Shown here: one piece after another, positions 14,068-32,500 of the stretch | Position numbering within the stretch: position 1 is the first letter of the stretch | How the letters are laid out: the number at the start of each line of letters is the position of its first letter | IMG/VR virus record: IMGVR_UViG_3300027708_000013 | Source of the DNA: a virus | Lineage: Duplodnaviria > Caudoviricetes | DNA length: 64,000 nt | Reading direction: 5' to 3' (one strand) | Made by a program: the position numbers and the translations under genes | Notes under the pieces: model-generated | Seen by the model: only the letters and a program-made list of their open reading frames with translations | Databases searched by the model: none | Told to the model about the DNA's origin: nothing

Positions 14068-14976
14068 ATGCCAATACAATACGATGACGGTTCCAGTATG
14101 CAAACATTTGACGATGGCTCCACGCTGGCTGTGGGCAATGACGGCTCTTTGAGCTCCAGTCCCAGTACCGATTCTGTCAAAGACAAGGGATCAGCTTCCA
14201 GTTTTCTAGACATGAGCAGTATAAGAAAACGAGCTGCTGGGTTATTTTCCGGAGGTGCCCAAACCAATCGTGTTACCACAATGCCCAAGGTAAACACCCT
14301 GAGCCAAGGTCAACCACAACCAGTGGATTGGCGAGTGCGTATAAGTCTAGCCGGAACCGGGTGGACACCGTTGATGGACGATGCTGATACATCATTGTTA
14401 TCTCCCTTGACAAGAACTGCTGAAACAGGGGTAATTTTTCCGTACACACCTGCAATCACTGTGGCACACAATGCCAGATATCAAGAACAAGCTCTGACAC
14501 ACAGCAATTATAAAAATTATTTTTATGAAGGCTCGGATGTGGGTGCAATCACCATCAGTGGAGACTTCACTGTGCAAAACCTAGACGAAGGACAATATCT
14601 GCTGGCAGCCATATACTTTTTTAGAACCTGTACCAAAATGTTTTTTGGTAATGATACAAATGCTGGAAACCCACCGCCCATAGTATTTTTAGATGGCTAC
14701 GGGGACTTTTATTTTCCGCATGTGAGTTGTGTAATAACAAACTTCACACACACCCTGCCGGATTCAGTAGATTATATAGAAATTCCTGTAGGATCTTCGG
14801 CCACAGTGTCCACCGGTACTAAATCTGCCGCCAATCGATTGGTAAGACTGCCCACAGCCAGTCAATTATCTGTAACAGTGCAACCGGTATACAGCAGAGC
14901 CAACATTTACAAAAACTTTACACTGGGCAAATTTGCAAAAGGACAACTATTATCTGGCAATGGAGGATTCTTATAA
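14068..14976 (+). CDS. Baseplate tail-tube initiator/cap protein (gp48/gp54-like)
   Basis: DWRVRISL, GVIFPYTP, HSNY, ITISGDFTVQN, KMFFG...NPPPIVFLDGYG...CVITNF; first gene of the baseplate operon. Confidence 0.7.
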   Translation: MPIQYDDGSSMQTFDDGSTLAVGNDGSLSSSPSTDSVKDKGSASSFLDMSSIRKRAAGLFSGGAQTNRVTTMPKVNTLSQGQPQPVDWRVRISLAGTGWTPLMDDADTSLLSPLTRTAETGVIFPYTPAITVAHNARYQEQALTHSNYKNYFYEGSDVGAITISGDFTVQNLDEGQYLLAAIYFFRTCTKMFFGNDTNAGNPPPIVFLDGYGDFYFPHVSCVITNFTHTLPDSVDYIEIPVGSSATVSTGTKSAANRLVRLPTASQLSVTVQPVYSRANIYKNFTLGKFAKGQLLSGNGGFL

Positions 14977-15281
14977 TGGCTCAAGTTACCTACAGTAGAT
15001 CCAGCCCGTACTTTGGCACTGCAAGTTTTGGTCAGTTTCTTGATGTATTAACTGCACGACCCATCACTGCACAGGATGACGATGTAGTTTATACTATAGA
15101 CGCAATTTATCAATTTCGTCCCGACCTGTTGGCATTTGACTTGTATGGTGACAGTGCTTTATGGTGGGTGTTTGCTGCTCGTAACCCCAATGTGATTGAA
15201 GATCCCTTGTTGGATTTTCGTTCCGGGGCGGTGATACAGATCCCCACCAAGTCTCAATTGACCGCAGATTTGGGAATTTAA
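14976..15281 (+). CDS. gp53: Baseplate wedge protein gp53-like (LysM-like)
   Basis: YQFRPDLLAFDLYGDSALWWVFAARNPNVIEDP...GAVIQIP. Confidence 0.8.
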   Translation: MAQVTYSRSSPYFGTASFGQFLDVLTARPITAQDDDVVYTIDAIYQFRPDLLAFDLYGDSALWWVFAARNPNVIEDPLLDFRSGAVIQIPTKSQLTADLGI

Positions 15282-15284
15282 CTC

Positions 15285-18266
15285 ATGGCCACCGGCTACC
15301 CTGTACTTGACACCTTAGAAAACCTTGCCAATGACTATGCTGCACAACTGAGTGCCGCTATTGCCAATGGAGATGCCCAAGCCATTGCTCAAAACAGGTC
15401 TAATTTAACAGAGATATTTAAATCACTGAGTAACAAGCAAACTCAATTTGAATCTCGCATCGCCGATGCCAAAGCAAATGGGGATACCGAACTTCTTGCC
15501 GAGTTGCGACTAAAAAACACCGCCACAATCAAACTCTTGAACACCACTGCTGCTTATCTGGATTCCAAGACTGCCGATCCCGGTTCCAACACTGCCACAG
15601 ACGCAGTGGTCACAGACAGCGACCAAACTGGAACCACAGTGCCCACGGGTACCACCAAATTAACCAAAGAAGAAACAAACAACATTGATCCTTACAACCC
15701 CAATGCCTGGGGCAGTGAAGGCGCCGCAGTACCTTATAAACCCAATCCTGCACAACAGGCCACATTGAAATCGCCCACCAGTACAGGTAATCAAGCCGGT
15801 GGCCCATTGACCAAAGCAGATCAATCAAACAAAAAAAATACTTCCACTGCCGAAGATACCGCTGAGATAACTTATAAAACAACAGAAAATCGGCTACATC
15901 AATACAACAATTATACCTATGGGTTGAGTCTACATGCACTCACTCAAGCCGACTATAAACAATTAAACAACAATCCAAAACAGTTTAAAATTAATCACAC
16001 ATTGATCAGTTCTGCCAGTAGACATCATGCCACCAGAAGTGAGTTTTTTACTGATGACTTTTATTTTGAAGAGTTAAAGTTAGGCACAGTGATTGGACTC
16101 AATGCCACCAGCAGATCTGGCAACGCCATTGAAATATCTTTCACCATCATCGAGCCCTACGGTATGACATTGATCAATAGATTGCTGGATCTCAGCGAAA
16201 AAACTCTACAAATAGAAAACTACTTGCAAGTTCCTTATCTATTAGAAATTGATTTTTTTGGTTACAACGATGCCGGGGCTCAAGAGAAAAAAATTGCAGA
16301 ATTAAATAAAAAAATCCCCATTAAATTAATTAACATGAAAATGCGGGCCACAGTCAAAGGCACAGAATATCAAATCACTGCGGTACCATTCAATCATCAG
16401 GCCAACTTTTCCAACACACAATCACTCAAAACCACAGTGGAAGTCACAGCCGGCACAGTGGGCGAGTATCTCAATGAACAAGGGGCAAACGCTGCAACAA
16501 TTAAATCTTTTGCCAATTCTATTCAAACCGAAGTGAAAAAAGATGACGAGAGAAAAGAAGCGATAGCCTCTATTAAAATAACCAATTACGATGATGGAAC
16601 TGAGTTAGTAAAAGACTCGGATCCCACTTTAAAGACTAAACAGGCAACTACACCAGTAGTCAAAGACAAAACCTCAACTCCTGCAGGGTCTGCCAGTAAT
16701 CTAAATTTTGTAATTAAAACAGATCAAGGTCTGGCTGCTGCGTACAATGCCTGGTATCAAGCATTGATAATCAATAAAGAAAAAAATATCACTGTACCGG
16801 ATGAAATCTTTTTTAAAATTACCAGCGATAAAATAAAAAATGCCCTGTTGGTTCCGCCTAAAAAACTCAATGAAAATAAAAAGCCAATGAATGATGATCC
16901 TTCTGCTATAGCAGTGCAGTTGAAGAATGACAATCCCAATGGGCCCGCAGCAGTTCAATCTGGCCAAGAAACCAGACAAACATTTACAGTCAATGCCGGA
17001 ACTTCAATTCAATCAATAGTAGAACAGGTTATAACCAATAGCGAGTACATCACAAATCAATTGAAACGTGATGGTGATCAAAATAAAGATATGTCTATTC
17101 CAACCAGTGCCAAGGATCTTAGTAAGGCTGTTGGAAATAAAAATATAAATTGGTTTAAAGTAGTTCCTCACATTGAACTGACAAAGTTTGACAACCAGCG
17201 ACAGGCCTGGGGTAAAAAAATCACCTTTATCATCAGCGAATATATTTACTACAACACCAGCGACGATCGTGCGGCAAAATCTCAATTACCAAATGCAGTT
17301 AAAGATTATCAATATTTTTATACTGGAAAAAATCAAGATGTTATTTCTTTTGACATAGATTTTAATGCTTTATTTTTTACTGCAATACAAGTGGACAAGA
17401 ATGCCAAGGCAGCAACGAGTAAAGCTCTCAACAACAATGATGCAAACACAGCCAGCGACTCGTCAGAAATTTCAATCAAAACCGGATATGGGAACCCAAC
17501 CAACCCGGAACAAATACCCATGCCTCTTAATGTTTCCAATTCCAGCGGTGGTAATTTAGGCAGCGCCGAAGCACAAAAAAATACCAGTTTTAGAGATAGT
17601 CTTTACAGTCAAATGGGCGGTGACATGTTAAATTTAAAATTAAACATCATAGGCGATCCAGATTTTATTAAACAGGATGATATATTATATACAGCACTTA
17701 CAACAGATTATAAACCCAACCAACAATTTGTCGACGGAGAAGCAAGCAGTTTGGTAATGGATCGCGGGGCAATATATTGTCGAGTGACATTTAAAACCCC
17801 CGCCGACATCAATGAAGCCACCGGCGGATTGGCGTATTATAAAGGTGATAGTACCAGCAGCTTCAGTGGGCTGTATCGAGTTTTAAAAGTTTCCAGTGAG
17901 TTTCGTAGTGGTAAATTTATGCAAACTTTAGAAACTGTAAGACAAATAAATCAACCCGGCGATGGTAAAAAAAGCACTGACAATGTTGAGCGAGATAAAA
18001 CAATCAAAGCACCAGAACAAAGCAAAAATGCAAAACAAAAAACCAACAATGTTAATTTAAGTACTGCAAGAGTAGAAGAGAAAACAAGGATCAAAACCAA
18101 AGAAAAGTTCAAAACACCTCCAGTTGCTACCACAGTGTTGAGAGAATTGCCTGAATCGGATCTTGGAACATTTGATTTACAGACAGTAGTGGACACTGCT
18201 GTCACAGTGGCCATTGGCGATAACTCTCTAGCCACAGGTGAATCAATAATTGGTTACTCCATATAA
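15285..18266 (+). CDS. Large baseplate hub protein (gp27-like position)
   Basis: NRLHQYNNYTY, FTIIEPYGMTL, PYLLEIDFFGY, YQYFYTGKN, LNIIGDPDFIKQD, FSGLYRVLKVSSEF..GKFMQTL; lies between gp53 and gp5. Confidence 0.65.
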   Translation: MATGYPVLDTLENLANDYAAQLSAAIANGDAQAIAQNRSNLTEIFKSLSNKQTQFESRIADAKANGDTELLAELRLKNTATIKLLNTTAAYLDSKTADPGSNTATDAVVTDSDQTGTTVPTGTTKLTKEETNNIDPYNPNAWGSEGAAVPYKPNPAQQATLKSPTSTGNQAGGPLTKADQSNKKNTSTAEDTAEITYKTTENRLHQYNNYTYGLSLHALTQADYKQLNNNPKQFKINHTLISSASRHHATRSEFFTDDFYFEELKLGTVIGLNATSRSGNAIEISFTIIEPYGMTLINRLLDLSEKTLQIENYLQVPYLLEIDFFGYNDAGAQEKKIAELNKKIPIKLINMKMRATVKGTEYQITAVPFNHQANFSNTQSLKTTVEVTAGTVGEYLNEQGANAATIKSFANSIQTEVKKDDERKEAIASIKITNYDDGTELVKDSDPTLKTKQATTPVVKDKTSTPAGSASNLNFVIKTDQGLAAAYNAWYQALIINKEKNITVPDEIFFKITSDKIKNALLVPPKKLNENKKPMNDDPSAIAVQLKNDNPNGPAAVQSGQETRQTFTVNAGTSIQSIVEQVITNSEYITNQLKRDGDQNKDMSIPTSAKDLSKAVGNKNINWFKVVPHIELTKFDNQRQAWGKKITFIISEYIYYNTSDDRAAKSQLPNAVKDYQYFYTGKNQDVISFDIDFNALFFTAIQVDKNAKAATSKALNNNDANTASDSSEISIKTGYGNPTNPEQIPMPLNVSNSSGGNLGSAEAQKNTSFRDSLYSQMGGDMLNLKLNIIGDPDFIKQDDILYTALTTDYKPNQQFVDGEASSLVMDRGAIYCRVTFKTPADINEATGGLAYYKGDSTSSFSGLYRVLKVSSEFRSGKFMQTLETVRQINQPGDGKKSTDNVERDKTIKAPEQSKNAKQKTNNVNLSTARVEEKTRIKTKEKFKTPPVATTVLRELPESDLGTFDLQTVVDTAVTVAIGDNSLATGESIIGYSI

Positions 18267-18286: not shown

Positions 18287-21200
18287 ATGCCAATAGATAA
18301 AGTAGCAGGAACCAAAATACCCAAGTGGGCCAAGCGAGACGGTGACTCGGGCATCAAATTTGACACGGCCACATTTATGGGAGTGGTGAAAGATAATAAA
18401 GATCCTCGCAGATTGGGCAGATTACGTGTATGGATTCCAGAATTTGGTCTAGGAGATCAAGGTGTGGAATCCGCGTGGCAAACAGTAAATTATGCAAGCC
18501 CGTTTTTTGGTGCTACATTTGTAGGCGATCAAACCGCTAATAATAAATTTGAAACAACCAATCACACCTACGGCATGTGGATGGTGCCACCGGATGTGGG
18601 CAATCAAGTGCTGTGTACATTTGTCAATGGTGATCCAGATCGCGGTTATTGGTTTGCCTGCGTCAACCCCACTATAAGTCATTACATGGTACCAGCCTTG
18701 GCAGGTGCTAAAAAAACCGACACAGAATTGGCCAGTGCAGATTTAAAAAGCAGTTTAGTCACAGACGGCAGTCAAGTATTGCCAGTGGCAGAATACAACG
18801 AAAATCGAGACGATGCTTTTGCTGCAGATTCCTATAACAATGCCAGACCCATACACGAATTTCAAGCCAATGTGCTGTTTCAGCAAGGACTGGACAGAGA
18901 TGCTGTGCGTGGTGCCATAAGTTCCAACAGCCATAGAGAAAGTCCCAGTCATGTGTTTGGTATCAGTACCCCGGGCCGAGCCTTGGGCAACGATCCCGCA
19001 GATGATCCCACCTACGAGAAAAAATTAGCCGACGGGTCAATCAACATTCTTGACTACGAAGTCAAGGCCAGAAAAGGTGGACATACATTTGTCATGGACG
19101 ACGGTGATGTCAACGGCAAAGACCAGTTGGTACGCATACGTTCATCTGCAGGACATCAGATCCTAATGAATGATACAGAAGGCATCATGTTTATCATTAA
19201 CTCCAGTGGCAGTAGTTGGATTGAGCTGAGTAAAAATGGTGACATGAACATCTACAACGGTGGCAGTTTCAGTGTTCGTGCTCAAGGCGATTTAAACCTA
19301 CGTGCTGACAAGAACATCAACATTGAAGCCGGCAGTGCATTGAACCTACGAGGTGCCACCTATGTCAATGCAGTCAGTGCCGACATCAACATTTCTGCTA
19401 CTAGTTCCACCAATGTTCATGGATCTAAAATCAACATTGGCGCCGGAGGTGCATTGACCTTGGGCGGTGGGTCTGTGTCGGTGGGATCGGGCGGTGCATT
19501 AGAACTCAAAGGCGGCTCTGTAGCCATAGACACCGGTGGGGCCAACAATGCTGGATCAGGAGTAAGTTTACAAACTCAACAGTTTCCTGATACCACTTAC
19601 GATACTAAAACACGACTGTGGAACAGTGTGGCTAATCAAGCTGCCAGCATAGTATCAATATTCCCAGCACATCAACCTTGGATTAAATCTTCCACACCTG
19701 GTGCCCCTACAGAAGCACCCGTACAGATATTGCCTGCCAGTGTGTGCCCACCTAGAACCACTTCATCTCCTGGTGACTATATATTACCCAAACCCAATGG
19801 TAATAAATTAGATTTGGGCAGAGTACACGGTGGTGCCAAAGGTTCGGCACCTTGGTCTACCGATACAGCATTTTTAGATAAAACCAAACAAGTGGCTGCA
19901 AATTTAGGAATTAGCAATTGGCTATGGTTATTGGCTGCTATGTATTTAGAAACCGGTGGTACAATGGATCCAGCCGAGCCCAACGGATTGGGATTTTACG
20001 GGTTGATACAGTTTGGTGGTGACGCTAGAAAACTAGTGGGCTACAATCCCAGTGATATCCCAGCATTTACTGGGCTGTCCCGAGTACAGCAGTTAGATCT
20101 AGTTGAAAAATATTTTAAATTAAATGCGCCGTGGAAGAAAAGCAAAGGTCGCATGGTAGATGTGTATTCGTGTATCAATTGGCCAGTGGCCACTGGCCAA
20201 GATTTAACTTATATAGTGTATGGATTAAATGGATCTCCTCCGGGTGCAACCTACACTGCATTTCAAAACAAAGCCTATAGTCAAAACCACTTTGACAAAA
20301 CTGGAAAAGGTTACGTAAATGTACAAGATTTTGAAACATTTATGCAAACCAAATTAAACGCTGTAAAACAATGCTTGGCCAATGCTGGTACTGCTGTGGA
20401 TCCAGGCACACTACAGTCTAGTTCAGGAATTAAAGTCACAGACAGTTCAGGAAATGCCATTGCTTCGGGATCTAAAACCACCAGTGCCAACACCGACGTC
20501 GGCATCAACAACGCATACGGTCGCACAGTATCATCCAGCTGTCCCAAAGATTGGTTAGGTAAAGCTGAACTGTATAAATCACCAGGGGCCATCAGCTCCG
20601 CAGCTCCTTTGTTGACACAGGCCTATGCCACCAATATGCATGCCGAATTAGGCTATTTTGAAAGCCAGTGGGACTATGCCAGCACTGGTGGGAAAACTTC
20701 AACACCTGCAGGTGCAGCTATTAACGTCGGCACTAAAGGTACAATATTGGTCATGGGCGACAGTATTGCTTGGGGAACTGGTCAAGCACTACAGAAAAAA
20801 TTGTCCTCAACCAGTGTCATGGCCCGAGTTGGTGACAACAGTACAACCATATTGGCCAATGCCAAAAATCCTCCTGCACCGGCCTCCGGACGTGTGGGAA
20901 CTTATCAAGATTATCAGTATGAAAATGATTGGGTAGGTAAAGTCAAAGTGGCAGTAATTTCTTGCGGTAGCAATGATATTGTCAAAGGTGTTGGTAATAA
21001 AACACTGTTGATTGAAAACTTAAAGGCCATTAGAGCCGCATTGCGAGCAGAAAAATACATTTGGATTTTACCCTATGACAGCATAGCCTGCGCTGCTGTA
21101 ACGCAAGTTGCCAGCATCACCGGCGATAAAACTGTGGCACTGACCGATTACCCCAGCGGCGATAAACCACCACTGCATCCAACAAGTTATCCAAATGTGG

Positions 21201-22666
21201 CTGGTGCATTGCAAAAAATAATAACAGAAATAACAGCTGGATCTTCTGCTAGTAATTCCGATGCCACAGCCAAGGCCACCCCGGGTGATGGCACAAGAAT
21301 TGGCAAGTATCAAGTGGATGCGTACCTTTTGGCCGAAGCTGGATATATCAAACCAGATGCTATCAAACAATACGGTGCACAAACATTATCTAAAAACGAA
21401 AGTTGGACCGGTAAAGACAGCATACGCAGTCAAAAAGATTTTTTTGCCAACAAACAACTGCAAGATGATTTACAAAATAAAGAATTTTTGGCCAACTATA
21501 AAACACTGGTCACCAACAAAGGTATCAAACCTGAAGATGACATTTGTATGGCCGCCGGTATGCTGTTTGTGGCACACAAGTATCGCAGTGCGGCATTGGC
21601 TGCCGAATGGCGCCAGTCAGGCAAGGTAAAAACACCACCTACAGTTGCTGGGGAGGCCGGCACTGCTGAAGAATACTTTAATCACGGTAGATATGCAATT
21701 GATGTATTAAGTGCTCAAGCCATAACCGGCACCAGCAATGCTGCTGGCCCAATCGACCTCAGCATTGATCCTGACACAGTGATGCTGTTTAGATCCAGCG
21801 GAACTGGTACCCGAGCTCGCTTTGATGCATCCACCCCCGTACTACGATCGGCCACCCTGCAATTGGCCAAGGCCTATAAAGAAAAGTACGATAAAAAAAT
21901 GCAGGTTAATTCAACACTTCGCACCAATGAAGAGCAAGCGGGACTTTATAATGCCTGGGTTGCAGGAGGCAAAAAAGGAAACTTGGTTGCACCCCCGGGC
22001 ACAAGTCAACACAATCTTGGTCAAGCAATGGACATTCAACACGATGTATATGCACTTGACACAGAATTGGGTCTAGGCAAATACAATTTAAAAACTATCC
22101 CCAACGATTGGCCACATATACAAACAATCAACACCAAGGCCACAGATGCCACTACAGAACCCAAGGCCAGTGGTCCCGGTGACCAATTGGTTGTATTGAT
22201 CACTGGACTAGAAAAAGCCGGTGAAGCATACAAGACCGGTGTTCGAGCCCTGGCCGCACAATTAACTGGGCTAGGTGCTGCCGCAGAAGTGTTTAGTTGT
22301 ACTGATATAGGCGGAGCCTCTGCTTATGTTGTAAAAAATCGTGGAACCAAGAAGGTAATATTAATTGGATTTAGTAAAGGTGCTGAAATAGTTAACCAAA
22401 TGGCTGCCACAGGTATGAAAATAGACCTCATGGTGTGTATTGACGGGTTCCCCACAGTGGGCATGCGTTTGGCCAATTTACCATCAAATGTAGTACGAGC
22501 AGTGAACTATTATAATCCTCGTAATTATGGCGATGCTGGTTACGGTAACCCTTATCCAGCTCCTCCGCCAGCACCAAGAGTTACCCACATAGCAAGCAGT
22601 GTCAATCACATGGCCATCGTGGCAGCGGTATCGGCTAACATAATTTCTGATGTGAGATCGGCGTAA
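18287..22666 (+). CDS. gp5: Baseplate central spike gp5-like with multiple catalytic domains (1459 aa)
   Basis: OB-fold GVVKDNKDPRRLGRLRVWIP...PPDVGNQVLC; beta-helix GHTFVMDDG...RIRSSAGHQILMND; lysozyme-like YLETGG...GLIQF; SGNH GDSI/GSND/LHP; M15 peptidase SQHNLGQAMD...WPH; alpha/beta hydrolase GFSKG. Confidence 0.88.
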   Translation: MPIDKVAGTKIPKWAKRDGDSGIKFDTATFMGVVKDNKDPRRLGRLRVWIPEFGLGDQGVESAWQTVNYASPFFGATFVGDQTANNKFETTNHTYGMWMVPPDVGNQVLCTFVNGDPDRGYWFACVNPTISHYMVPALAGAKKTDTELASADLKSSLVTDGSQVLPVAEYNENRDDAFAADSYNNARPIHEFQANVLFQQGLDRDAVRGAISSNSHRESPSHVFGISTPGRALGNDPADDPTYEKKLADGSINILDYEVKARKGGHTFVMDDGDVNGKDQLVRIRSSAGHQILMNDTEGIMFIINSSGSSWIELSKNGDMNIYNGGSFSVRAQGDLNLRADKNINIEAGSALNLRGATYVNAVSADINISATSSTNVHGSKINIGAGGALTLGGGSVSVGSGGALELKGGSVAIDTGGANNAGSGVSLQTQQFPDTTYDTKTRLWNSVANQAASIVSIFPAHQPWIKSSTPGAPTEAPVQILPASVCPPRTTSSPGDYILPKPNGNKLDLGRVHGGAKGSAPWSTDTAFLDKTKQVAANLGISNWLWLLAAMYLETGGTMDPAEPNGLGFYGLIQFGGDARKLVGYNPSDIPAFTGLSRVQQLDLVEKYFKLNAPWKKSKGRMVDVYSCINWPVATGQDLTYIVYGLNGSPPGATYTAFQNKAYSQNHFDKTGKGYVNVQDFETFMQTKLNAVKQCLANAGTAVDPGTLQSSSGIKVTDSSGNAIASGSKTTSANTDVGINNAYGRTVSSSCPKDWLGKAELYKSPGAISSAAPLLTQAYATNMHAELGYFESQWDYASTGGKTSTPAGAAINVGTKGTILVMGDSIAWGTGQALQKKLSSTSVMARVGDNSTTILANAKNPPAPASGRVGTYQDYQYENDWVGKVKVAVISCGSNDIVKGVGNKTLLIENLKAIRAALRAEKYIWILPYDSIACAAVTQVASITGDKTVALTDYPSGDKPPLHPTSYPNVAGALQKIITEITAGSSASNSDATAKATPGDGTRIGKYQVDAYLLAEAGYIKPDAIKQYGAQTLSKNESWTGKDSIRSQKDFFANKQLQDDLQNKEFLANYKTLVTNKGIKPEDDICMAAGMLFVAHKYRSAALAAEWRQSGKVKTPPTVAGEAGTAEEYFNHGRYAIDVLSAQAITGTSNAAGPIDLSIDPDTVMLFRSSGTGTRARFDASTPVLRSATLQLAKAYKEKYDKKMQVNSTLRTNEEQAGLYNAWVAGGKKGNLVAPPGTSQHNLGQAMDIQHDVYALDTELGLGKYNLKTIPNDWPHIQTINTKATDATTEPKASGPGDQLVVLITGLEKAGEAYKTGVRALAAQLTGLGAAAEVFSCTDIGGASAYVVKNRGTKKVILIGFSKGAEIVNQMAATGMKIDLMVCIDGFPTVGMRLANLPSNVVRAVNYYNPRNYGDAGYGNPYPAPPPAPRVTHIASSVNHMAIVAAVSANIISDVRSA

Positions 22667-22687: not shown

Positions 22688-23065
22688 ATGACCACACTAT
22701 ACAAAGGATTCAGCACTGTCAACCGATACAAAAAGTTTCGTGTCACTGACATTGACTTGATCAAACAGGACTTGATCAATCATTTCAACATTAAAAAAGG
22801 TGAAAAAGTCATGCAACCGGACTTTGGCACCATTGTTTGGAGCCTGTTGTTTGAACCCATGACTGCCACTGTGCGTCAAGCCATCATCGATGATGTCAAG
22901 TCGGTGGTGGGATATGATCCACGCACCAATTTACAAAACATAACCATCAACGAATACCAGAACGGTATACAAATAATGGTGGATCTACTGTATATTCCCA
23001 CCAATCAATTGACAGCATTGAACTTGCAATTTGATTCCAATACACAACGACTCACAGTAAGATAG
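22688..23065 (+). CDS. gp25: Baseplate wedge subunit gp25
   Basis: DIDLIKQDLINHFNIKKGEKVMQPDFGTIVWSLLFEP...YDPR. Confidence 0.93.
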   Translation: MTTLYKGFSTVNRYKKFRVTDIDLIKQDLINHFNIKKGEKVMQPDFGTIVWSLLFEPMTATVRQAIIDDVKSVVGYDPRTNLQNITINEYQNGIQIMVDLLYIPTNQLTALNLQFDSNTQRLTVR

Positions 23066-23121: not shown

Positions 23122-26100
23122 ATGTCTATCACTACACGTCAAACAAATTTATTGGTAAACCAGGACTGGACTACCCTGTACCAGAGTTTTCAAAATGCCA
23201 ACTTTCAAAGCTATGACTTTGAAACCATACGCAAAAGCATGATCGATTATCTGCGTAACTACTATCCAGAAGATTTTAATGATTTTACAGAAAGCTCAGA
23301 GTACATAGCATTAATTGACTTGATTGCTTTTTTAGGACAGAGTCTAGCATTTAGAACAGATTTAAATGCACGTGAAAGTTTTTTTGACACTGCACAAAGA
23401 CGTGACAGTATTTTAAAACTGGCCAGTTTAATCAATTACAATGCCAAACGTACTGTACCTGCTGCGGGCTATTTGAAAATTGACAGCATCACCACCAGCG
23501 AGAGTGTGACAGACAGCAACGGCCTAGATCTAGCCAACCTGTTGATCAATTGGAATGACACCACCAACGAAGATTGGCAAGAACAATTCACTGCCATATT
23601 TAATGCTGCTTTAATTAACAATCAAAACATCGGCACTCCGGGCAACACACAAGACATCAATGGCATCATGACCAGTGAGTACAGCATTAATTTATTGGGC
23701 GGAGTGATTCCCACTTACACTTTCAATGCCACAATAGAAGGCACCAGTACACCGTTTGAAGCAGTGAGTGCCACATCAGCAGGACAAAGTTATGTATACG
23801 AAGCCAGTCCGGCACCCAGTGGAAAATTCAATATCCTGTATCAAAATGACAATCTTGGCAATGCCAGCAACAACACCGGGTATTTTGTTTACTTTAAACA
23901 AGGTACACTGAACAATTTAGTTTTAAACCTACAACAGAGTTTACCCAATCGCATAGTCAATGTCAACTACGACAACATCAACAACACAGATGTTTGGTTG
24001 TATAAACTTGACAATGCTGGAGTACCCAATACCATATGGAGCAGTGTTCCTGCTGTGGCCGGCATCAACATCATTTACAATCAAAGCACCAATCGTAACT
24101 TGTATCAGATCAATACCAGAGCCAATGATCAAATTGATTTAGTATTTGGTGACGGTAGTTTTGCCAACATTCCGCAGGGAAATTTCCAATTATTTTATCG
24201 AGTCAGCAACGGATTAAATTATAAAATTACTCCCGACGAAATGCAAAACATTGTGATTGCTTTAAACTATGTCAGTAAGAGCAACAGAGTAGAAACGCTG
24301 ACTGTACGTGCCAGTTTATACTACACAGTGACCAATGCTGCCACAAGAGAACTAGTGGACGACATTCGTGTAAAAGCACCACAGCAGTACTATACACAGA
24401 ACAGAATGATCACAGGTGAAGACTATAATCTTTTCCCGTACACCAACTTCAGTAGCATTTTAAAAGTCAAGGCAGTGAACAGAACCAGTTCCGGTATCAG
24501 TAGATATCTAGATGTGCTGGATGTCACTGGAAAATATTCCAGTACCAACATGTTTGGTACAGATGGTTGGTTGTATAAACAAAATTCTGTGCCCAGCTCA
24601 ACGTTTGGCTTTGCATCAACCAACGACATAAACAATGTAATTTACAACACAGTAATACCTATTTTAAACAGTACAGAAGTTAAGCATTTCTATTATGCCA
24701 ATTACACAAGATATACACCTGCTGTGACCACCACGTGGACACAGGCCACGGCCAATTCTGGTAGCAGCACTGGTTACTTGACCAACGGAACTGTAATTCA
24801 AACGGTTGGATACGTAACCAACACCAACTTTAAATATATCACTAACGGAACACTATTAAAATTCACAGCCGGCACAGGAAATTATTTCAATGCACAAAAC
24901 GTAATAGTGTCTGGTACTCCGGTATATGAAAATGATAAAAAATATATTTGGGTAGCAGTGGCATCTGTTGCCAACAGTAATACATTACAAATAACACAAA
25001 ACATACCCACAGGTGCTGTGCTTGAAAGTATTATTCCTGTGTTTAAAAATGATTTCAGTAACTTGGCATTTGTTAGCACCATGGTTAATTTGATAAAGAG
25101 TTATAAAAACTTTGGAATCAGATACGATGTACCCTCACAAACTTGGAAAATTATTGCACCAGCCGATTTAAACACTACCTCGGCATTCAGCTTGGCCAAT
25201 ACAGGTGATACCACGGGTGGGGGACTAGACAGCAGTTGGATAGTATCCTTTGCCTACAACGGTGTCAACTACAATCTAGCCCATCGTAATTTAAAATATG
25301 TATTTGAAAGTTTAGAACAAACACGTTTTTACTTTGATCCAAAAGTAAAAGTATTTGACAGCAAATCCGGAGCAACTGTGATTGATCAGGTATCGATATT
25401 AAAAAACAACACAGCACCTGACAGTTTAACCACAGCATTGGGACAAGATCAATTATGGTACATTTACAACAATGTTGTCACAGCGGATGGAAGAATTGAC
25501 TATACACAGGTATTGGTTACTTTTAGTGCTGTCAACAATGACGGTGTTCCTGATGATCCAGATATTTTTACCAATGTTGCCAACACTGCAACCACAGGTA
25601 AGTATGTATTTTTTCAACAGGTCACTGATGCCAACACCAACGTTGGAAACTTTTTAACAGCCGCTCCGGTTGACAACAGCTTGATAGTGACAACCTATAC
25701 CACTCAAAGTGCTATATTAACCAATCAAAATTTATATGTTGATGGGCAAGTATTTTATGCCACCAGCGAAGATAAATTTTATGTACTGTCAATTTCTGCT
25801 GCTGGAAACCGTACACTTGCACAGTCTACCAGCTACATAGCCGAAGTTGGAAGACAAAAGTTAAACTTCCAGTATAGACACAACAGCCCAAACACACGCC
25901 GTATAGATCCCAGTCCCAACAATATTATGGACTTGTATTTGTTGACCACAGACTATACCACCGATTACACAGCATGGGTAAGAGATACTACCAATACCTT
26001 GACAGAACCAGCACTGCCAACCAATGAAGAATTAAAATTAACCTATGGTTCTGGTGCCACCAGCTTAGAAAATTACAAAGCACTCAGTGACACAATCATT

Positions 26101-26511
26101 TATAACCCTGGCAGATATAAGCCGGTGTTTGGCGCCAAGGCAGACTCAGCACTGCAAGCCACATTTAAAGTGGTTAAAAATCCAAATTTAACCATCAGCG
26201 ATAATGATGTAATCAGTGGAGTGATTGCTGCAATCAACACTTATTTTGACACAGCCAATTGGAACTTTGGCGAGACATTTTATTTCAGTGAACTAGCTAC
26301 TTATTTGCATAACACACTGGCACCAAACGTGGCCAGTATTATTATTGTGCCAGCCAACACTGATGTGGCGTTTGGTGGACTCATGCAGATTAATTCCAAT
26401 CCAGATGAAATTATCATAAGTTGTGCCACAGCCAGCAATGTACAAATCATCAGTGCCATAACTGCTGCACAAATTAATCAGACCTTGGCCGGGTCAAACA
26501 CAATCGTATAA
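23122..26511 (+). CDS. gp6: Baseplate wedge subunit gp6-like (1129 aa)
   Basis: YDFETIRKSMIDYLR, FNDFTESSEYIALIDLIAF, FFDTAQRRDSILKLA, DLVFGDG, QNRMITGEDY, FGETFYFSEL. Confidence 0.9.
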   Translation: MSITTRQTNLLVNQDWTTLYQSFQNANFQSYDFETIRKSMIDYLRNYYPEDFNDFTESSEYIALIDLIAFLGQSLAFRTDLNARESFFDTAQRRDSILKLASLINYNAKRTVPAAGYLKIDSITTSESVTDSNGLDLANLLINWNDTTNEDWQEQFTAIFNAALINNQNIGTPGNTQDINGIMTSEYSINLLGGVIPTYTFNATIEGTSTPFEAVSATSAGQSYVYEASPAPSGKFNILYQNDNLGNASNNTGYFVYFKQGTLNNLVLNLQQSLPNRIVNVNYDNINNTDVWLYKLDNAGVPNTIWSSVPAVAGINIIYNQSTNRNLYQINTRANDQIDLVFGDGSFANIPQGNFQLFYRVSNGLNYKITPDEMQNIVIALNYVSKSNRVETLTVRASLYYTVTNAATRELVDDIRVKAPQQYYTQNRMITGEDYNLFPYTNFSSILKVKAVNRTSSGISRYLDVLDVTGKYSSTNMFGTDGWLYKQNSVPSSTFGFASTNDINNVIYNTVIPILNSTEVKHFYYANYTRYTPAVTTTWTQATANSGSSTGYLTNGTVIQTVGYVTNTNFKYITNGTLLKFTAGTGNYFNAQNVIVSGTPVYENDKKYIWVAVASVANSNTLQITQNIPTGAVLESIIPVFKNDFSNLAFVSTMVNLIKSYKNFGIRYDVPSQTWKIIAPADLNTTSAFSLANTGDTTGGGLDSSWIVSFAYNGVNYNLAHRNLKYVFESLEQTRFYFDPKVKVFDSKSGATVIDQVSILKNNTAPDSLTTALGQDQLWYIYNNVVTADGRIDYTQVLVTFSAVNNDGVPDDPDIFTNVANTATTGKYVFFQQVTDANTNVGNFLTAAPVDNSLIVTTYTTQSAILTNQNLYVDGQVFYATSEDKFYVLSISAAGNRTLAQSTSYIAEVGRQKLNFQYRHNSPNTRRIDPSPNNIMDLYLLTTDYTTDYTAWVRDTTNTLTEPALPTNEELKLTYGSGATSLENYKALSDTIIYNPGRYKPVFGAKADSALQATFKVVKNPNLTISDNDVISGVIAAINTYFDTANWNFGETFYFSELATYLHNTLAPNVASIIIVPANTDVAFGGLMQINSNPDEIIISCATASNVQIISAITAAQINQTLAGSNTIV

Positions 26512-26523
26512 TCGGGAACAGCA

Positions 26524-29500
26524 ATGGCATCAATAAAAACTGCAAATTTTTTACCTGAAGTATTTAGGACAGACACCAATCGTAAGTTCTTGGGTGCTAC
26601 CCTGGACCAATTGGTTACTCCGCCAGACTTGAGAAAAGTCAATGCTTATGTGGGTCGTAAATTTGCACCAACGTATCAAAATTCCAATAACTACCAGCCT
26701 GAGAGCAGTGCGTTAAGACAGAATTATCAACTAGAGCCCAGTGTAGTAGTTAAAAATAAAACTGGCACAGTGGAATTTTTTAGCAGTTATATTGATTTAA
26801 TTAATCAAATTGGATACAGTGGCGGCTTTGTCAACGATCACAGTAGATTGTTTTCCAGTGAAACTTATAGTTTTGATGGCTTATTTGATTTTGACAAATT
26901 TGTAAATTTTAATCAATACTATTGGTTAACCGACGGACCAACCACAGTGGAAGTGTTTGGTGCCGGTGTGGATCAAACTCAAACTTTCACCGTGACAAGA
27001 GATGCCGGCAATGGAGCCTATCGTTTTTCTGGATCAGGGTTGGCAAAAAATCCAGCCGTGCGGTTAGCCCGTGGCGGTACTTATCAGTTTGTAGTAAATC
27101 AACCTGGTTATCCTTTTTGGATTCAAAGCACTATAGGCACATCGGGATTAAAAAACAATCAAAGTAATTTAAGCAGTAGAGACATCTTGGGAATAGAAAA
27201 CAATGGCACCGATGTGGGCACCATTACATTTCGAGTTCCGCAATCCACAGCACAAGATTATTACATTTACATGCAATACCCCAATAATGATATTGGGTCG
27301 GGCACTGTGGATACTTCAACTGATTTGCATTACAATCAAATTCAAGGCGCCACGCTTAGCCAATTGGCGGCCCTGGGCGGACTTGACGGAGTAAAATCGC
27401 AGTTATTGGGTAAAACTTTTATCTTTACCAACAGTGATATTGATGATGCCTATTGGACAGTCGACGGAAACACTGTACCCAAAGCCACACGTAGGAATGT
27501 TTGGCAAATTCAAGCTGTTGATCCATTGGCCCAAGACCCGGTTATTAGTTTGATATCAATCACCACTGTGACAAAAAATCAAAAAATTTATGTAGCCAGT
27601 GGACAAAACTATGCAGAATATAGTTTTTATTTAGACCAACAGTTTCTTACGTACAAACAAATTCCAAACATCACAGCACCGTTGTCTACCATTTATTATC
27701 AAGATGGTGTCAGTGCCGGATATGCGGGACAATTTAATCTTGTTGCAATTGATGACAACACATTAAAAGTTGATGATGACATTGTGGGTAAAGCAGATTA
27801 TACCAGCCCCAACGGTGTTGTATTCACCAACGGATTAAAAATTCAATTTGATGCCAGTGCTGTGCCTGCCACTTATGCCAACAACGCATATTATGTTGAG
27901 GGTGTAGGAACTGCTATACAATTATTATTAGCAACAAATTTTCAAACACCGGAGCCATATGCTGCCAACGGCATTGGCACTCCGGACTACATTACAATCA
28001 ATCGTGCCAGTCAAGATTTAAATCCGTGGACACGTAGTAATCGTTGGTTCCACATTGATGTTATCAAAGCCGCAGCCTCTTACAACAACGAAGTACCAGT
28101 ATTTGACCAAAACGTCAGAGCCAACCGTCCCATTATTGAATTTGAAGCTGATTTGCAACTTTATAATTTTGGACGTGTGGCAAAAACTCCAGTAGACATA
28201 TTTGACTTGACTACAACAGATGCACGTAACACAGTTGAGCTTAGTGGGTCGTTTCAATTAAACGGGGTCTCATTACAAAACGGGCAACGTGTGGTGTTTG
28301 CCAATGATTTTGATCCCACAGTGAGAAATCAAATATTTGTTATCAACATTTCGGAGATCAGTCAAACTCCTGTTATTACTTTAAGTCTGGCAGAAGACAG
28401 TGAGACCAGCACTTACAATAATTTAATTGTGTTACAAGGAGCCAACAAAGGCACAGAATATTGGTTCAACGGTAGCAACTGGATTGCAGGGCAACAAAAG
28501 ACTGGGGTCAATCAAACTCCCATGTTTGATGTATACGACGGCAATGGCATCAGCCTGGGCGACGTTACAATATATCCCGCATCTACTTTTGCTACTGCTA
28601 CTAATAATCTTGGAACTGTTGTTGGAGGAACAAAAATCTTTTCATACCAACCAGGCACTGGTGTTGATGACCAAATCTTAGGTTTCCCTTTGAGTTATAG
28701 AACATTTAATCAAGTTGGTGATATACAGTTCAATAACAATTTTGATACAGATGTATTTTCATACACAGCCGCCTCTGCCACACAAACAGAAAATATTCAT
28801 TCTGCGGGCACACTAAGAAAAAATTCTGGACTTGTTGCCAGTGCCGCAAGAAATTCGTGGGCCAAAGTTACTGAACCCAGCCGTCAGTATCAGCTGATAA
28901 GTGGAGTGTATGATGGTGTAAATCGTTATTTTGAAATTGACATACGACCTGAAGCTAGAACCACAATACCTTATTTTAAAGTTTTTAAAAACTTTGTCGA
29001 ATTGACCACTGCACAATTTCAAACAGTATCAGCCGGTGTTAAACTGTATGTAAAAATAACAGACTCCACCTTGGCCATTGACGATAAAATAGATATTTTG
29101 ATTTACAGCAAAACAGTCAGTGCCTTGGGTTATTATCAAGTTCCGGATAACCTAAACTTCAACACTGAAAACACTAATTTTTCTAGTTTAACTTTGGGAC
29201 AGTTGCGTAACCACTTGGTAACATTGGTGTCCAACAGCAATCAAGTCACAGGTTCAGCATTTGGTGCTAATAATCTCAGAGATAGACCCATCAAAGCTCA
29301 AGGCGGAAATATTTTACAAAACGCCAGCCCAGTGTTGTACAGTGAATTATTTTTAGTTGATCCCGAAATTAATTTCTTAAAAGGCTTAGAACTGGCCAGA
29401 CACAATTACGGCAGAATTAAAAACAAAATACTTGAATCGGCTGTTAAATTAAAAACCATTGACACCAACGACATTCCAGGCATGTTGGACTCTATATTGT

Positions 29501-32500
29501 TGACTATTAACAGTGTTAAGAACAGCTCGTTCCCGTGGTATTATAGTGACATGGTTCCATATGGTCCGTTAAAAAATACTATTACTTACACAGTGATTGA
29601 TGCTGAACAGATAGATTACGAAATAACAAACATTTTTGTTGATACTGAGTTGAGCAATCAATCGGTACTGGTATATGTCAACAATGTGCAATTGACCAAA
29701 GGTCAAGACTATGTGTTTGATACCACACGTGCCGGTATTACGTTTAAAATCTCATTGGCTGTGGACGATGTAATTACAATCAACGAGTACAGTGACACTG
29801 ACGGAAATTATATTCCTGAAACTCCGACTAAATTAGGATTGTATCCTAAATTTACTCCTAAAATTTATTTAGATGAAACTTATGTCGATCCTATCAATGT
29901 AATACAAGGACATGACGGCAGTATAACACCAGCATTTAACGATTTCAGAGATCAATTGCTGTTGGAATTTGAATTGCGTATTTACAACAATATCAAAATT
30001 GATGCCACTGTGGTCAGTAACAACATCTATGACACAGTTCCGGGAAAATTTCGTACAACAGATTACACCAATGCAGAGTTTACAAGATTATTAAGCAGAA
30101 GCTTTTTGCAATGGGTTGGTGCCAATAGAGTTGACTTTACCAGTAATACGTATTTTGTTGGAGACGATCCATTCACTTGGAACTTCAGCAGATTCTTTGA
30201 CACAGTCAACGGAGAAGCCTTGCCGGGAACTTGGCGTGCCATTTATCAATATTTTTACGACACTGTAGCCCCTAACACAGCACCGTGGGAAATGTTGGGC
30301 TTTAGCGAACAACCCCTTTGGTGGGAAACACGTTATGGTGTTGCACCCTACACCGGTGGAAATTTAGTATTATGGGGCGACTTAGAAGTTGGCTATGTTT
30401 GGAACAACGGTGACAGTTATACTGATGCAAGATTTGCACGTCCGGGATTGTTGAGTATTATCCCTGTAGACGAAAACGGCAATTTACGCAATCCTGCACA
30501 ATTTTTAGTAAAGTCTTTCAACAGTAACCAAGCCAATGGCAGTTATGCAGTGGGACAACAAGGTCCAGTAGAAACAGCTTGGCGTCGCAGTAGCGATTAT
30601 CCTTATGCTGTGCAAGAAGCCATTGCACTGGCAAGACCAGGATATTTCTTTGGTACCTTGATGGATGTCACTAGATATTACAAAGATACCATGCTGGATC
30701 AATATGTATTGAGTGACAGTTTGCAACGCATAACTCCGGGGGCAATTCGTATTAATGGCCAAAGCTCTGGCACCAGCATTCGTCGAGTGGCCGGTTACAT
30801 AAACTGGATAGCTGAATATTTACGTGGACAGGGAATAGAACCGGTCGACAAAATTTCTGGATACTTGGACTCGGTCACTGTGCAATTGGCTTATAAAATG
30901 GCCGGATACAGTGATAAATCATTTTTACAAGTATTGGCGGAACAAGCAAGTCCCACCAGTACCACCAACAGTGTGGTAATACCAGCAGAAAACTACACAC
31001 TGGAATTGTATAAATCAACTCCAGTTAAAACAGTTGCCTACAGTGCAGTTATAGTAGAAAAAAGCGAAAACGGTTATACGGTGAGTGGTTACGACACCAG
31101 TAATCCTTACTTTACTATTATTCCCAGTTTGGCCAATAACAATGCTTATCCCGTAACAGTGTTGAACGACACCGGCATAGTGTATCAAGATTATCAAAAA
31201 TACAAGATCACAGTGCCTTATGGATTTGAGTTTACCAATAAACAACAAGTGGTGGATTTCTTAATCAGTTATGAAAGATACTTAATTGGCAGTGGATTTG
31301 TTCTTGCTGATAAAGATCCCAACTTAGAAACACAAAGAGATTTTAAACTCAGTGTTCAAGAATTTTTAGCCTGGAGCCAGCAGGGCTGGGCAGTGGGCAC
31401 TGTTATGATATTAAGTCCTGTGCTGAATCACTTGACTGTGAACAGCACGTCAGGAGTGGTTGATAAGATAGAAAATGCACCATTGCAGTCTAGAATCTTA
31501 GACCCTGAATTTAATTTTATCAAGTACAACGAACTCACAGTGACAAGAACAGATAATGTGTTTACATTGACTGCTGTATCTGGCCGTACCATTGCTTTGG
31601 CTGTGTTGGACATAGTGGAATATGAACATGTAGTAATTTTTGACAACGTCACGGTGTTCAACGATGTGATCTATGTACCTAGTTTGGGTAACAGACAGTA
31701 CAGATTAAAATTGATAGGGCAAAAAACTGGATCGTGGACTGGTGCATTAAATCCTCCAGGATTTGTTTACAACAGTAGCACAGTAGATGTATGGCAACCG
31801 GGAGTTGATTACTTGTTGGGCAGTTTGGTTACATACAAAGATGTTTATTATACCAACACACAAAATTTAACAGCCACCAACACATTTTCTCCTTCACAAT
31901 GGAAACGTCTCAACAAGAATCAAATACAAACAGGACTACTACCAAACTTTAGTTACAATGCCGGCAAGTCACTGAGATATAACAATTTCAATGACCCAGA
32001 ATTGCAAGGCGACTTCGCTAACTTTGTTGGTAACGAAATAGGATTCACACCTAGACAATACTTGACAAACTTTGGTATTGATATACCCACACAGGCTAAA
32101 TTTTATCAAGGGTTCATTAGACAAAAAGGCACATTAAATTCTATATCAGCATTTACAGCGGCAGGTTTCAATGGCGTAAGCAGCACAATCAATTTGTATG
32201 AAGATTGGGCCATGCGTGTGGGCGAGTACGGTGCAACAAACAACAATAGATATGTTGAATTAATACTCAGCGAAGGCGTGTTCAAAGGCGAACCTGCTGT
32301 GTTTAATTTTTTAAACAACGGCACCACAGCCACAGACAACATTGTGTCAGTGTATCCCGACAATATATACCGGTCCAGCATTGGGTATTCTCCAACAATC
32401 TTTAAAGATAGAGATGACGCAAGTTTTTATGAAAACGATATATTAACTGCCGGTTATGTCAGCGTGGCAGATGTGGACACACAGATATTCAACATACAAG

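Follow-up and report, generated by a model that had tools for sequence, protein, structure and literature searches.

The stretch of DNA examined here (the window, 64,000 nucleotides) belongs to an uncultured virus of the Duplodnaviria (Caudoviricetes; IMG/VR record IMGVR_UViG_3300027708_000013). At 18287..22666 its plus strand holds a single intact open reading frame (ORF) of 1459 codons plus stop, the central-spike gene, whose product of 1459 amino acids (aa) is referred to as P0001. The phage genome is about 341 kb, the longest contig encoding an identical P0001 protein having 340,958 bases. As detailed below, P0001 probably serves a contractile-tailed jumbo phage as its central, membrane-piercing spike, with five putative enzymatic modules behind the beta-helix, and one of these modules, an SGNH hydrolase, is inserted inside another. 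The parts of the protein are the following:

aa 30-432, plus strand: gp5/VgrG-type OB fold and beta-helix taken together (PHROG and Pfam)
18374..18676, plus strand: N-terminal OB fold, aa ~30-130 (Pfam Phage_base_V)
18677..19156, plus strand: conserved middle region, aa 131-290, without family assignment and with many invariant residues
19157..19582, plus strand: beta-helix needle, aa ~291-432 (profile of 27 relatives)
19583..19843, plus strand: post-helix neck, aa 433-519 (invariant W445, H462, P464, and C487)
19844..20371, plus strand: LT1, predicted SLT-type lytic transglycosylase, aa 520-695 (catalytic E555; GLIQ 572-575)
20564..20686, plus strand: N-terminal piece of LT2, a putative lysozyme-like domain, aa 760-800 (helix ending in E792-S793)
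20717..21253, plus strand: SGNH hydrolase, aa 811-989, residues 72-250 of structure model 1 (S826, G849, N896, H964; D959)
21296..21730, plus strand: C-terminal piece of LT2, aa 1004-1148 (GKYQ 1006-1009, then helical body)
21764..22141, plus strand: M15 (LAS-type, VanY-like) zinc peptidase, aa 1160-1285 (R1212, H1242, D1249, D1274, H1277)
22169..22663, plus strand: minimal alpha/beta hydrolase, aa 1295-1459 (S1363 in GFSKG, D1386, H1441)

An original prediction, made from the sequence alone, had described the protein as a gp5-type spike with an OB fold and a beta-helix, and Pfam, PHROG and VgrG helix matches bear this out. PHROG 13211 ("baseplate hub subunit and tail lysozyme") matched aa 31-422 (E 1.4e-38), Pfam Phage_base_V matched the OB fold (E 1.6e-8; 35.2 bits, cut-off 23.8) and the central-spike chain 8kea_D matched aa 52-127. 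A beta-helix repeat pattern is visible in the sequence, and the profile of 27 relatives matched the spike helices of VgrG proteins and contractile injection systems with E values of 2e-5 to 5e-4 (7aef_q, 2.3e-5; 9rce_F, 8.3e-5; 8gra_I, 9.9e-5), the match to T4 gp5 (1k28) being marginal and limited to the helix (0.074). P0001 is not a gp5 in the strict sense of T4, in which the lysozyme lies between the OB fold and the helix, since its enzymes come after the helix. The position that the lysozyme holds in T4 gp5 is taken in P0001 by the middle region (aa 131-290), with the invariant polar residues E169, N171, H190, Q193, D203, D205, S213, R217, and E218. No lysozyme family was found in this region by Pfam, PHROG or profile searches against solved structures.

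The neck that follows the needle has four residues that are invariant across 27 spikes, among them H462, which sits in the motif P-x-H-E/Q-P-W, and in a trimer these residues could form a metal-binding apex. Low-complexity, low-confidence linkers follow aa 432, 696, 800, 990, and 1285. T4 gp5 is proteolytically processed, and the long linkers, together with the conserved neck and its invariant His and Cys, would be in keeping with a similar fate for P0001, whose C-terminal array would then be cleaved during assembly and be loosely attached, lost or active elsewhere, for instance after ejection. We regard such cleavage as quite improbable: no cleavage motif was identified in P0001, evolved VgrG proteins act with their C-terminal enzymes attached, and dozens of relatives with the same N-terminal spike bear C-terminal lytic modules, a distribution that speaks for a functional fusion.

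Among the enzymes of the array, LT1 retains its catalytic Glu and is predicted to be an SLT-type lytic transglycosylase. Its single sequence matched a solved "lytic transglycosidase" (PDB 9udh_A) with an E value of 1.6e-7, and a profile of 63 LT1 sequences (alignment A7) matched the same structure across the whole domain with an E value of 5.8e-55; weaker profile matches were to a phage internal protein, MltC and Slt70-type enzymes. Pfam SLT recognized 31 of the 63 family members, the LT1 of P0001 itself falling below the Pfam threshold. The catalytic pair E555-T556 is followed by G572-L-I-Q575, and E555, G572, I574, and Q575 are invariant in the 63 sequences. In the stretch aa ~667-688 of LT1 (20285-20350), four family members gave weak EF-hand_1 matches (Pfam E 0.01-0.1). 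This may be a calcium-binding loop like that of the transglycosylase Slt35.

The SGNH module does not follow LT2 but is inserted within it, and three results agree on this. In most of the shorter relatives (1075-1113 aa) the BLAST alignments jump from query position ~797 to ~1001 while the coordinates of the relative stay contiguous, and the multiple alignment agrees with this. The spacing between the Glu and the Gly of GKYQ is 14-22 residues in 64 uninterrupted LT2 domains, compared with 214 in P0001 (E792-G1006). Finally, in the AlphaFold model of aa 740-1150 (model 1), the two LT2 halves join into one all-helical domain that superposes on the uninterrupted domains of gp5-like clusters (197 residues; root-mean-square deviation, rmsd, 2.0). 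Model 1 was built from a 44-row alignment (A3), which was adopted after MAFFT tests; a mixed alignment of LT2-only and SGNH-only fragments (A2) was discarded, given that its SGNH rows fell on LT2 columns. The mean predicted local distance difference test score (pLDDT) was 88, with low confidence solely in the linkers on either side of the insert.

LT2 itself is quite probably a lysozyme-like, glycan-cleaving domain, to judge by its motifs, its family and its language-model neighbors. The C-terminal piece matched PHROG 27932 (E 8.7e-12) and yielded 76 homologues; the 64 family members tested all matched PHROG 27932, 10 of them also matching an "endolysin" PHROG. The family motif consists of ES and, 14-22 residues later, G-K/R-Y-Q, with Glu kept in 56/64, Ser in 57/64, and both Gly and Tyr in 64/64. 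In model 1, E792 ends a helix (residues 39-54 in model numbering) and GKYQ lies in a short hairpin just past the insert, so that the Glu at a helix end is followed by the G-x-x-Q strand motif. Pfam gave Transglycosylas in 3 of the 64 members and nothing else meaningful, and SLT or Destabilase were the sole recurrent named families among the language-model neighbors of two LT2-family members, which we take as a lead.

The SGNH module carries the signature blocks I, II, III, and V of this superfamily, namely S826 (in GDS), G849, N896 (GSND; GxND), and H964, which are kept in 23-29 homologues. The best 50 rows of the VIA fold search were all SGNH proteins and Foldseek agreed. The structures matched included 1yzf (Z 15.0; rmsd 3.9 over 153 residues), the OatA C-terminal domain (Z 14.6), the Ape1 peptidoglycan O-acetylesterases 8gld and 4k3u (Z 12.4 and 12.3), and the O-antigen deacetylase domain of the phage G7C gp63.1 tail fiber (Z 11.2). 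The structural neighbors include OatA/PatB SGNH domains, TesA/lysophospholipase L1 and carbohydrate acetylesterases. Elsewhere, SGNH homologues adjoin wall-lytic modules, as in one protein with SGNH and Phage_lysozyme2 (P0051) and another with LysM and SGNH (P0115). From the fold similarity to Ape1 and this domain context, the module is probably an O-acetylpeptidoglycan esterase. O-acetylation at C6 of MurNAc blocks lysozymes and lytic transglycosylases. According to two reports, de-O-acetylation by the SGNH esterase Ape1 is required before lytic transglycosylases can act (PMC6174289; bioRxiv 10.1101/2021.09.23.461501), and in Neisseria the optimal function of Ape1 depends on the transglycosylase LtgA (PMC7083599).

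The M15 module agrees with the VanY-like zinc peptidase that had been proposed, with Pfam VanY at 31.5 bits (cut-off 25) and PHROG 2649 (endolysin) at an E value of 6.6e-13. Its H1242-x6-D1249, D1274-x-x-H1277, and R1212 correspond to the zinc ligands, catalytic acid and substrate-binding Arg of the family, and they are kept across 38 M15-only fragments, the exceptions being one substitution by Gly and a small number of truncated rows. In its D-x-x-H form the last motif resembles that of the phage L-alanoyl-D-glutamate peptidases (Ply500, T5). In model 2 (aa 1150-1459, covering M15 and the alpha/beta hydrolase; pLDDT 85), the M15 part matched the catalytic domain of the Ply500 endolysin (2vo9_A) and VanY (5hnm_A) by Foldseek. 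The hydrolase that ends the protein had BAAT_C as its best Pfam match, below the cut-off (17.7 bits; cut-off 20.9), and its profile matched a surfactin thioesterase domain in the PDB weakly (E 0.0087). The modeled fold compared well with 2qjw (VIA Z 14.7; rmsd 2.9 over 150 residues) and the 50 VIA rows listed were all alpha/beta hydrolases (esterases, lipases, thioesterases, cutinase, and dienelactone hydrolases), with cutinases and acetylxylan esterases among the Foldseek matches. S1363 stands at the elbow, after model strand 207-213 and at the start of a helix, D1386 comes after model strand 232-236 and H1441 just before the last helix. No member of this Ser-Asp-His triad varies among 12 sequences, which reach down to 36% identity. 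The model thus supports an alpha/beta hydrolase fold with an intact triad, whose substrate class may be that of an esterase, lipase, thioesterase or peptidase. A search for homologues of the hydrolase domain among proteins of similar length found a single fragment.

The original prediction had counted five envelope-degrading domains on the spike. The motifs on which it drew are all in place, namely ETGG (555-558), GLIQFG (572-577), YFESQ (790-794), GDSIAWG (824-830), GKYQ (1006-1009), SQHNLGQAMD (1240-1249), DWPH (1274-1277), and GFSKG (1361-1365), and the nucleotide ranges it gave correspond to LT1 (~19850-20370, aa 522-695) and M15 (~21830-22120, aa 1182-1278). LT1, SGNH, M15, and the hydrolase have support from profile or fold searches, together with conserved catalytic residues. 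For the second lysozyme-like domain, the conserved catalytic motifs hold up and the lysozyme fold is putative, the domain being backed by its motifs, family and language-model neighbors. The SGNH esterase stands as to fold and signature residues, its place being inside LT2 instead of after it. As to the second esterase, the fold and the triad of the alpha/beta hydrolase are upheld and esterase activity is not, given that the fold also houses peptidases and lipases.

The spike gene is embedded in a run of virion genes on the plus strand, among baseplate genes:

14068-14976, plus strand: "virion structural protein," upstream in the baseplate block
14976-15281, plus strand: gp53-like wedge protein, upstream in the baseplate block
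15285-18266, plus strand: second "virion structural protein," directly upstream of the spike gene
22688-23065, plus strand: gp25-like wedge protein, directly downstream of the spike gene
23122-26511, plus strand: gp6-like wedge protein, downstream of the gp25-like gene
26524-39489, plus strand: ORF of 4321 codons, directly after the gp6-like wedge gene

The spike gene thus lies between the gp53-like gene and the gp25-like and gp6-like wedge genes. The 4321-codon ORF occupies one fifth of the window. The nearest cultured relatives of P0001 belong to jumbo myophages (PA5oct, Atu_ph07, and the Serratia BF/Erwinia group), the match being confined to the N-terminal 350-400 residues. The C-terminal part (aa 480-1459), in which each of the five modules is a conserved domain, has 1271 homologous proteins at E values of 0.001 or less. 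An NCBIfam scan of three P0001 segments gave nothing over threshold. An assembly chimera was considered and rejected, because four proteins from other samples (55-87% identical) share the identical full architecture.

The comparison of gp5 domain strings among relatives, which had been suggested, was carried out by mapping domains in 172 collected proteins. It revealed that one type of needle carries the same modules in different subsets and in varying order. The sets found behind the needle were:

LT2 alone: 15 proteins
LT1 alone: 5 proteins
LT2-M15: 6 proteins
LT1-LT2-M15: 10 proteins
LT1-LT2: 2 proteins
LT1-LT2-SGNH: P0010
LT2-M15-SGNH: P0024
LT1-SGNH: P0034
LT1-LT2-M15-hydrolase: P0006
full set with nested SGNH: P0001-P0005

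The sister spikes P0010, P0024, and P0034 bear the SGNH module at the C-terminus, and in two Gp5_OB proteins (P0032 and P0093) it stands immediately before LT2. Between P0003 and P0001 the needle is 95% identical and LT1 53%, and between P0002 and P0001 the needle is 94% identical and the hydrolase 67%; such divergence of a single module indicates, at the level of sequence, a probable recent cassette replacement. In the needle tree, which was midpoint-rooted and had some deeper forks at 85-87 support, the proteins with nested SGNH do not cluster together: P0007, a spike without SGNH and without the hydrolase, is sister to P0004/P0005 with support of 100/99. These mosaic identities and the needle tree therefore point to recombination as the way in which the modules move. 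A search of 50,697 deposited phage records returned no record that spans at least 80% of the LT2-SGNH unit and no match to the alpha/beta hydrolase module; the full five-module architecture is absent from deposited phage genomes.

Outside spikes, the hydrolase had homologues in just two forms: proteins of about 505 aa that end in a Peptidase_M15_3 domain and one protein of 403 aa. The 403-aa form, also a hydrolase-M15 protein, is encoded directly downstream of a 107-aa PAAR protein (Pfam PAAR_motif, E 4.6e-9) in two contigs of large phages, and the 505-aa forms have an N-terminal PAAR domain of their own that is 56% identical to the 107-aa protein (E 6e-39). The loci with PAAR and hydrolase/Peptidase_M15_3 in other large phages are:

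L002:7668-9212
L003:1218-2762
L001:8001-9515

In gp5/VgrG needles, the cap at the tip is a PAAR protein. The hydrolase and M15 pair is thus predicted from sequence to be delivered on the piercing tip complex through two different fusions, either to a gp5-type spike or to PAAR, which supports a role of the pair in envelope penetration. The PAAR-hydrolase-M15 arrangement appears to be the phage equivalent of what are known in type VI secretion as "specialised PAAR effectors." A tblastn search for a PAAR protein that covered the 64-kb window, beyond which the genome extends for another ~280 kb, gave no match. Two of the contigs with a PAAR-linked hydrolase (L001:1-17515 and L002:1-17212) also encode a porin, an OmpA-like protein, peroxiredoxin, superoxide dismutase, fatty-acid desaturase, Fe-S assembly proteins, HSP70, and ribosomal protein S21.

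Taking the above into account, we consider it probable that P0001 is a spike with a five-enzyme array that opens the peptidoglycan during infection. Once the needle had been driven across the outer membrane, the C-terminal array tethered to it would locally open the peptidoglycan. The glycan strands would be cut by LT1 and LT2, and the SGNH module, held on two flexible linkers a few residues past the catalytic Glu of LT2, would strip the MurNAc C6 O-acetyl groups that would otherwise block cleavage of the lysozyme and transglycosylase types. M15 would cleave stem peptides or cross-links, and the Ser-Asp-His alpha/beta hydrolase would remove a further ester- or amide-linked substituent of the envelope. 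The substrates, the order of action and the fold of LT2 are presumed in this scheme.

Several points weigh against it. LT2 of P0001 has no Pfam match, and its profile found chance matches alone among PDB sequences (E above 1). Fold searches with model 1 (PDB Foldseek and VIA) returned PDB lists filled by SGNH proteins, and the relative orientation of SGNH and LT2 was not confidently predicted (predicted template modeling score, pTM, 0.62). An hhalign comparison of the LT2 and LT1 profiles aligned just the E-S/T...G-x-x-Q motif with 2% probability and was rejected as evidence of homology. In the SGNH module D959 lies five residues before H964, whereas P0004 and the stand-alone homologues have D-x-x-H, and lipids, O-antigens and capsules are further substrates of both the SGNH and the alpha/beta hydrolase folds. 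The scheme also supposes that the full-length chain is present, uncleaved, in the virion.

The atypical Asp-His spacing, together with the absence of the catalytic Glu in 8 of the 64 uninterrupted LT2-family domains, might suggest that one or more modules lack catalytic activity and act instead as anchors that bind the wall. This is highly improbable for P0001, since the catalytic residues to be expected are all there and do not vary, either in P0001 or in its close relatives. The breadth of the two serine hydrolase folds has a further consequence, since both could be directed at other layers of the envelope, that is, at O-acetyl groups of O-antigen or capsule or, in a phospholipase- or lipase-like manner that would facilitate passage of the membrane, at lipid or lipoprotein esters of the outer membrane. 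The likeness of the SGNH module to TesA/lysophospholipase L1, carbohydrate acetylesterases and the G7C gp63.1 deacetylase would fit such targets, as would the lipases, cutinases, thioesterases and acetylxylan esterases found near the hydrolase and the weak matches of its profile, around the nucleophile, to surfactin and fengycin thioesterase domains. A deacetylase of surface glycans, however, would be expected on peripheral fibers or spikes and not behind the central needle. Moreover, the SGNH module is nested in a domain of glycan-cleaving type and has homologues beside LysM, Phage_lysozyme2 and LT domains, and the alpha/beta hydrolase was always accompanied, among the homologues collected, by the peptidoglycan peptidase M15. 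We hence hold targets in other layers to be rather unlikely overall, and most plausible especially for the C-terminal hydrolase.

Returning to the five-enzyme array acting on peptidoglycan, a more specific version of it may be put forward with limited confidence. In this version, SGNH-in-LT2 would be a "deacetylate, then cut" unit that counters peptidoglycan O-acetylation, the swappable modules would form a second layer of host range set by wall chemistry and the delivery would be by gp5 or PAAR. The thick or acylated host envelope of the original prediction fares in two ways: O-acetylated host peptidoglycan is a reasonable inference because the SGNH module is nested in a domain of glycosidase type, and nothing was found in support of a thick wall.

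The comparison with known systems helps to place the protein. T4 gp5 (PDB 1k28) shares the OB fold, the trimer-type beta-helix needle, the baseplate neighborhood and a wall enzyme on the same chain. As the original prediction rightly noted, it carries one lysozyme domain; this is of the T4-lysozyme type, between OB fold and helix, in contrast to the five modules after the helix in P0001. Evolved VgrG spikes of type VI secretion, among them VgrG-3 of Vibrio cholerae with its C-terminal peptidoglycan hydrolase, resemble P0001 in that enzymes are appended after the beta-helix, and the best solved matches of the P0001 N-terminus are VgrG-type spikes; they differ in that P0001 is a phage protein without a fused gp27-like part and bears five modules, one of them nested, instead of one. 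The tail lysozymes of T4-like phages of Rhizobium, Agrobacterium and Sinorhizobium (phiM9, Atu_ph04, OLIVR5, and P10VF) share LT2 at 32-36% identity, and the "baseplate hub subunit and tail lysozyme" of jumbo phages such as PA5oct shares the N-terminal spike (38% identity for PA5oct), but, like every other deposited phage record searched, these cover less than 80% of the LT2-SGNH unit and have no match to the hydrolase module.

The virion-associated lysin gp13 of phi29 is a lysozyme plus an M23 peptidase on one tail-tip protein. Lysins of this type thus likewise unite glycan- and peptide-cleaving activities on one tail-tip protein, although with two modules against five in P0001, without esterases and without nesting. 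Ape1 and LtgA of Neisseria (PMC7083599) offer the parallel of an SGNH esterase fold paired with an enzyme that cleaves glycan strands. These are, however, separate and mutually binding bacterial housekeeping proteins, Ape1 having a CBM35, whereas the SGNH module of P0001 is minimal and spliced in, is 17-19% identical to Ape1 in sequence and has a putative activity.

Tail-associated wall hydrolases are well known, and they usually bear one or two activities; what is new here is the number of modules, five catalytic ones on a single spike, the nesting of one domain in another and the cassette-like exchange. The modules are candidates for enzyme-based antibacterials against lysozyme-resistant walls. 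The copies of hydrolase and M15 linked to PAAR would represent a second delivery route for the same cargo. The splicing of an esterase beside a site of glycosidase type predicts that O-acetylation of the wall is a barrier to phage entry, for which the phage would carry its own remover. Finally, the comparative pattern suggests that the enzyme cargo of these spikes is apparently exchanged in the manner of receptor-binding modules.

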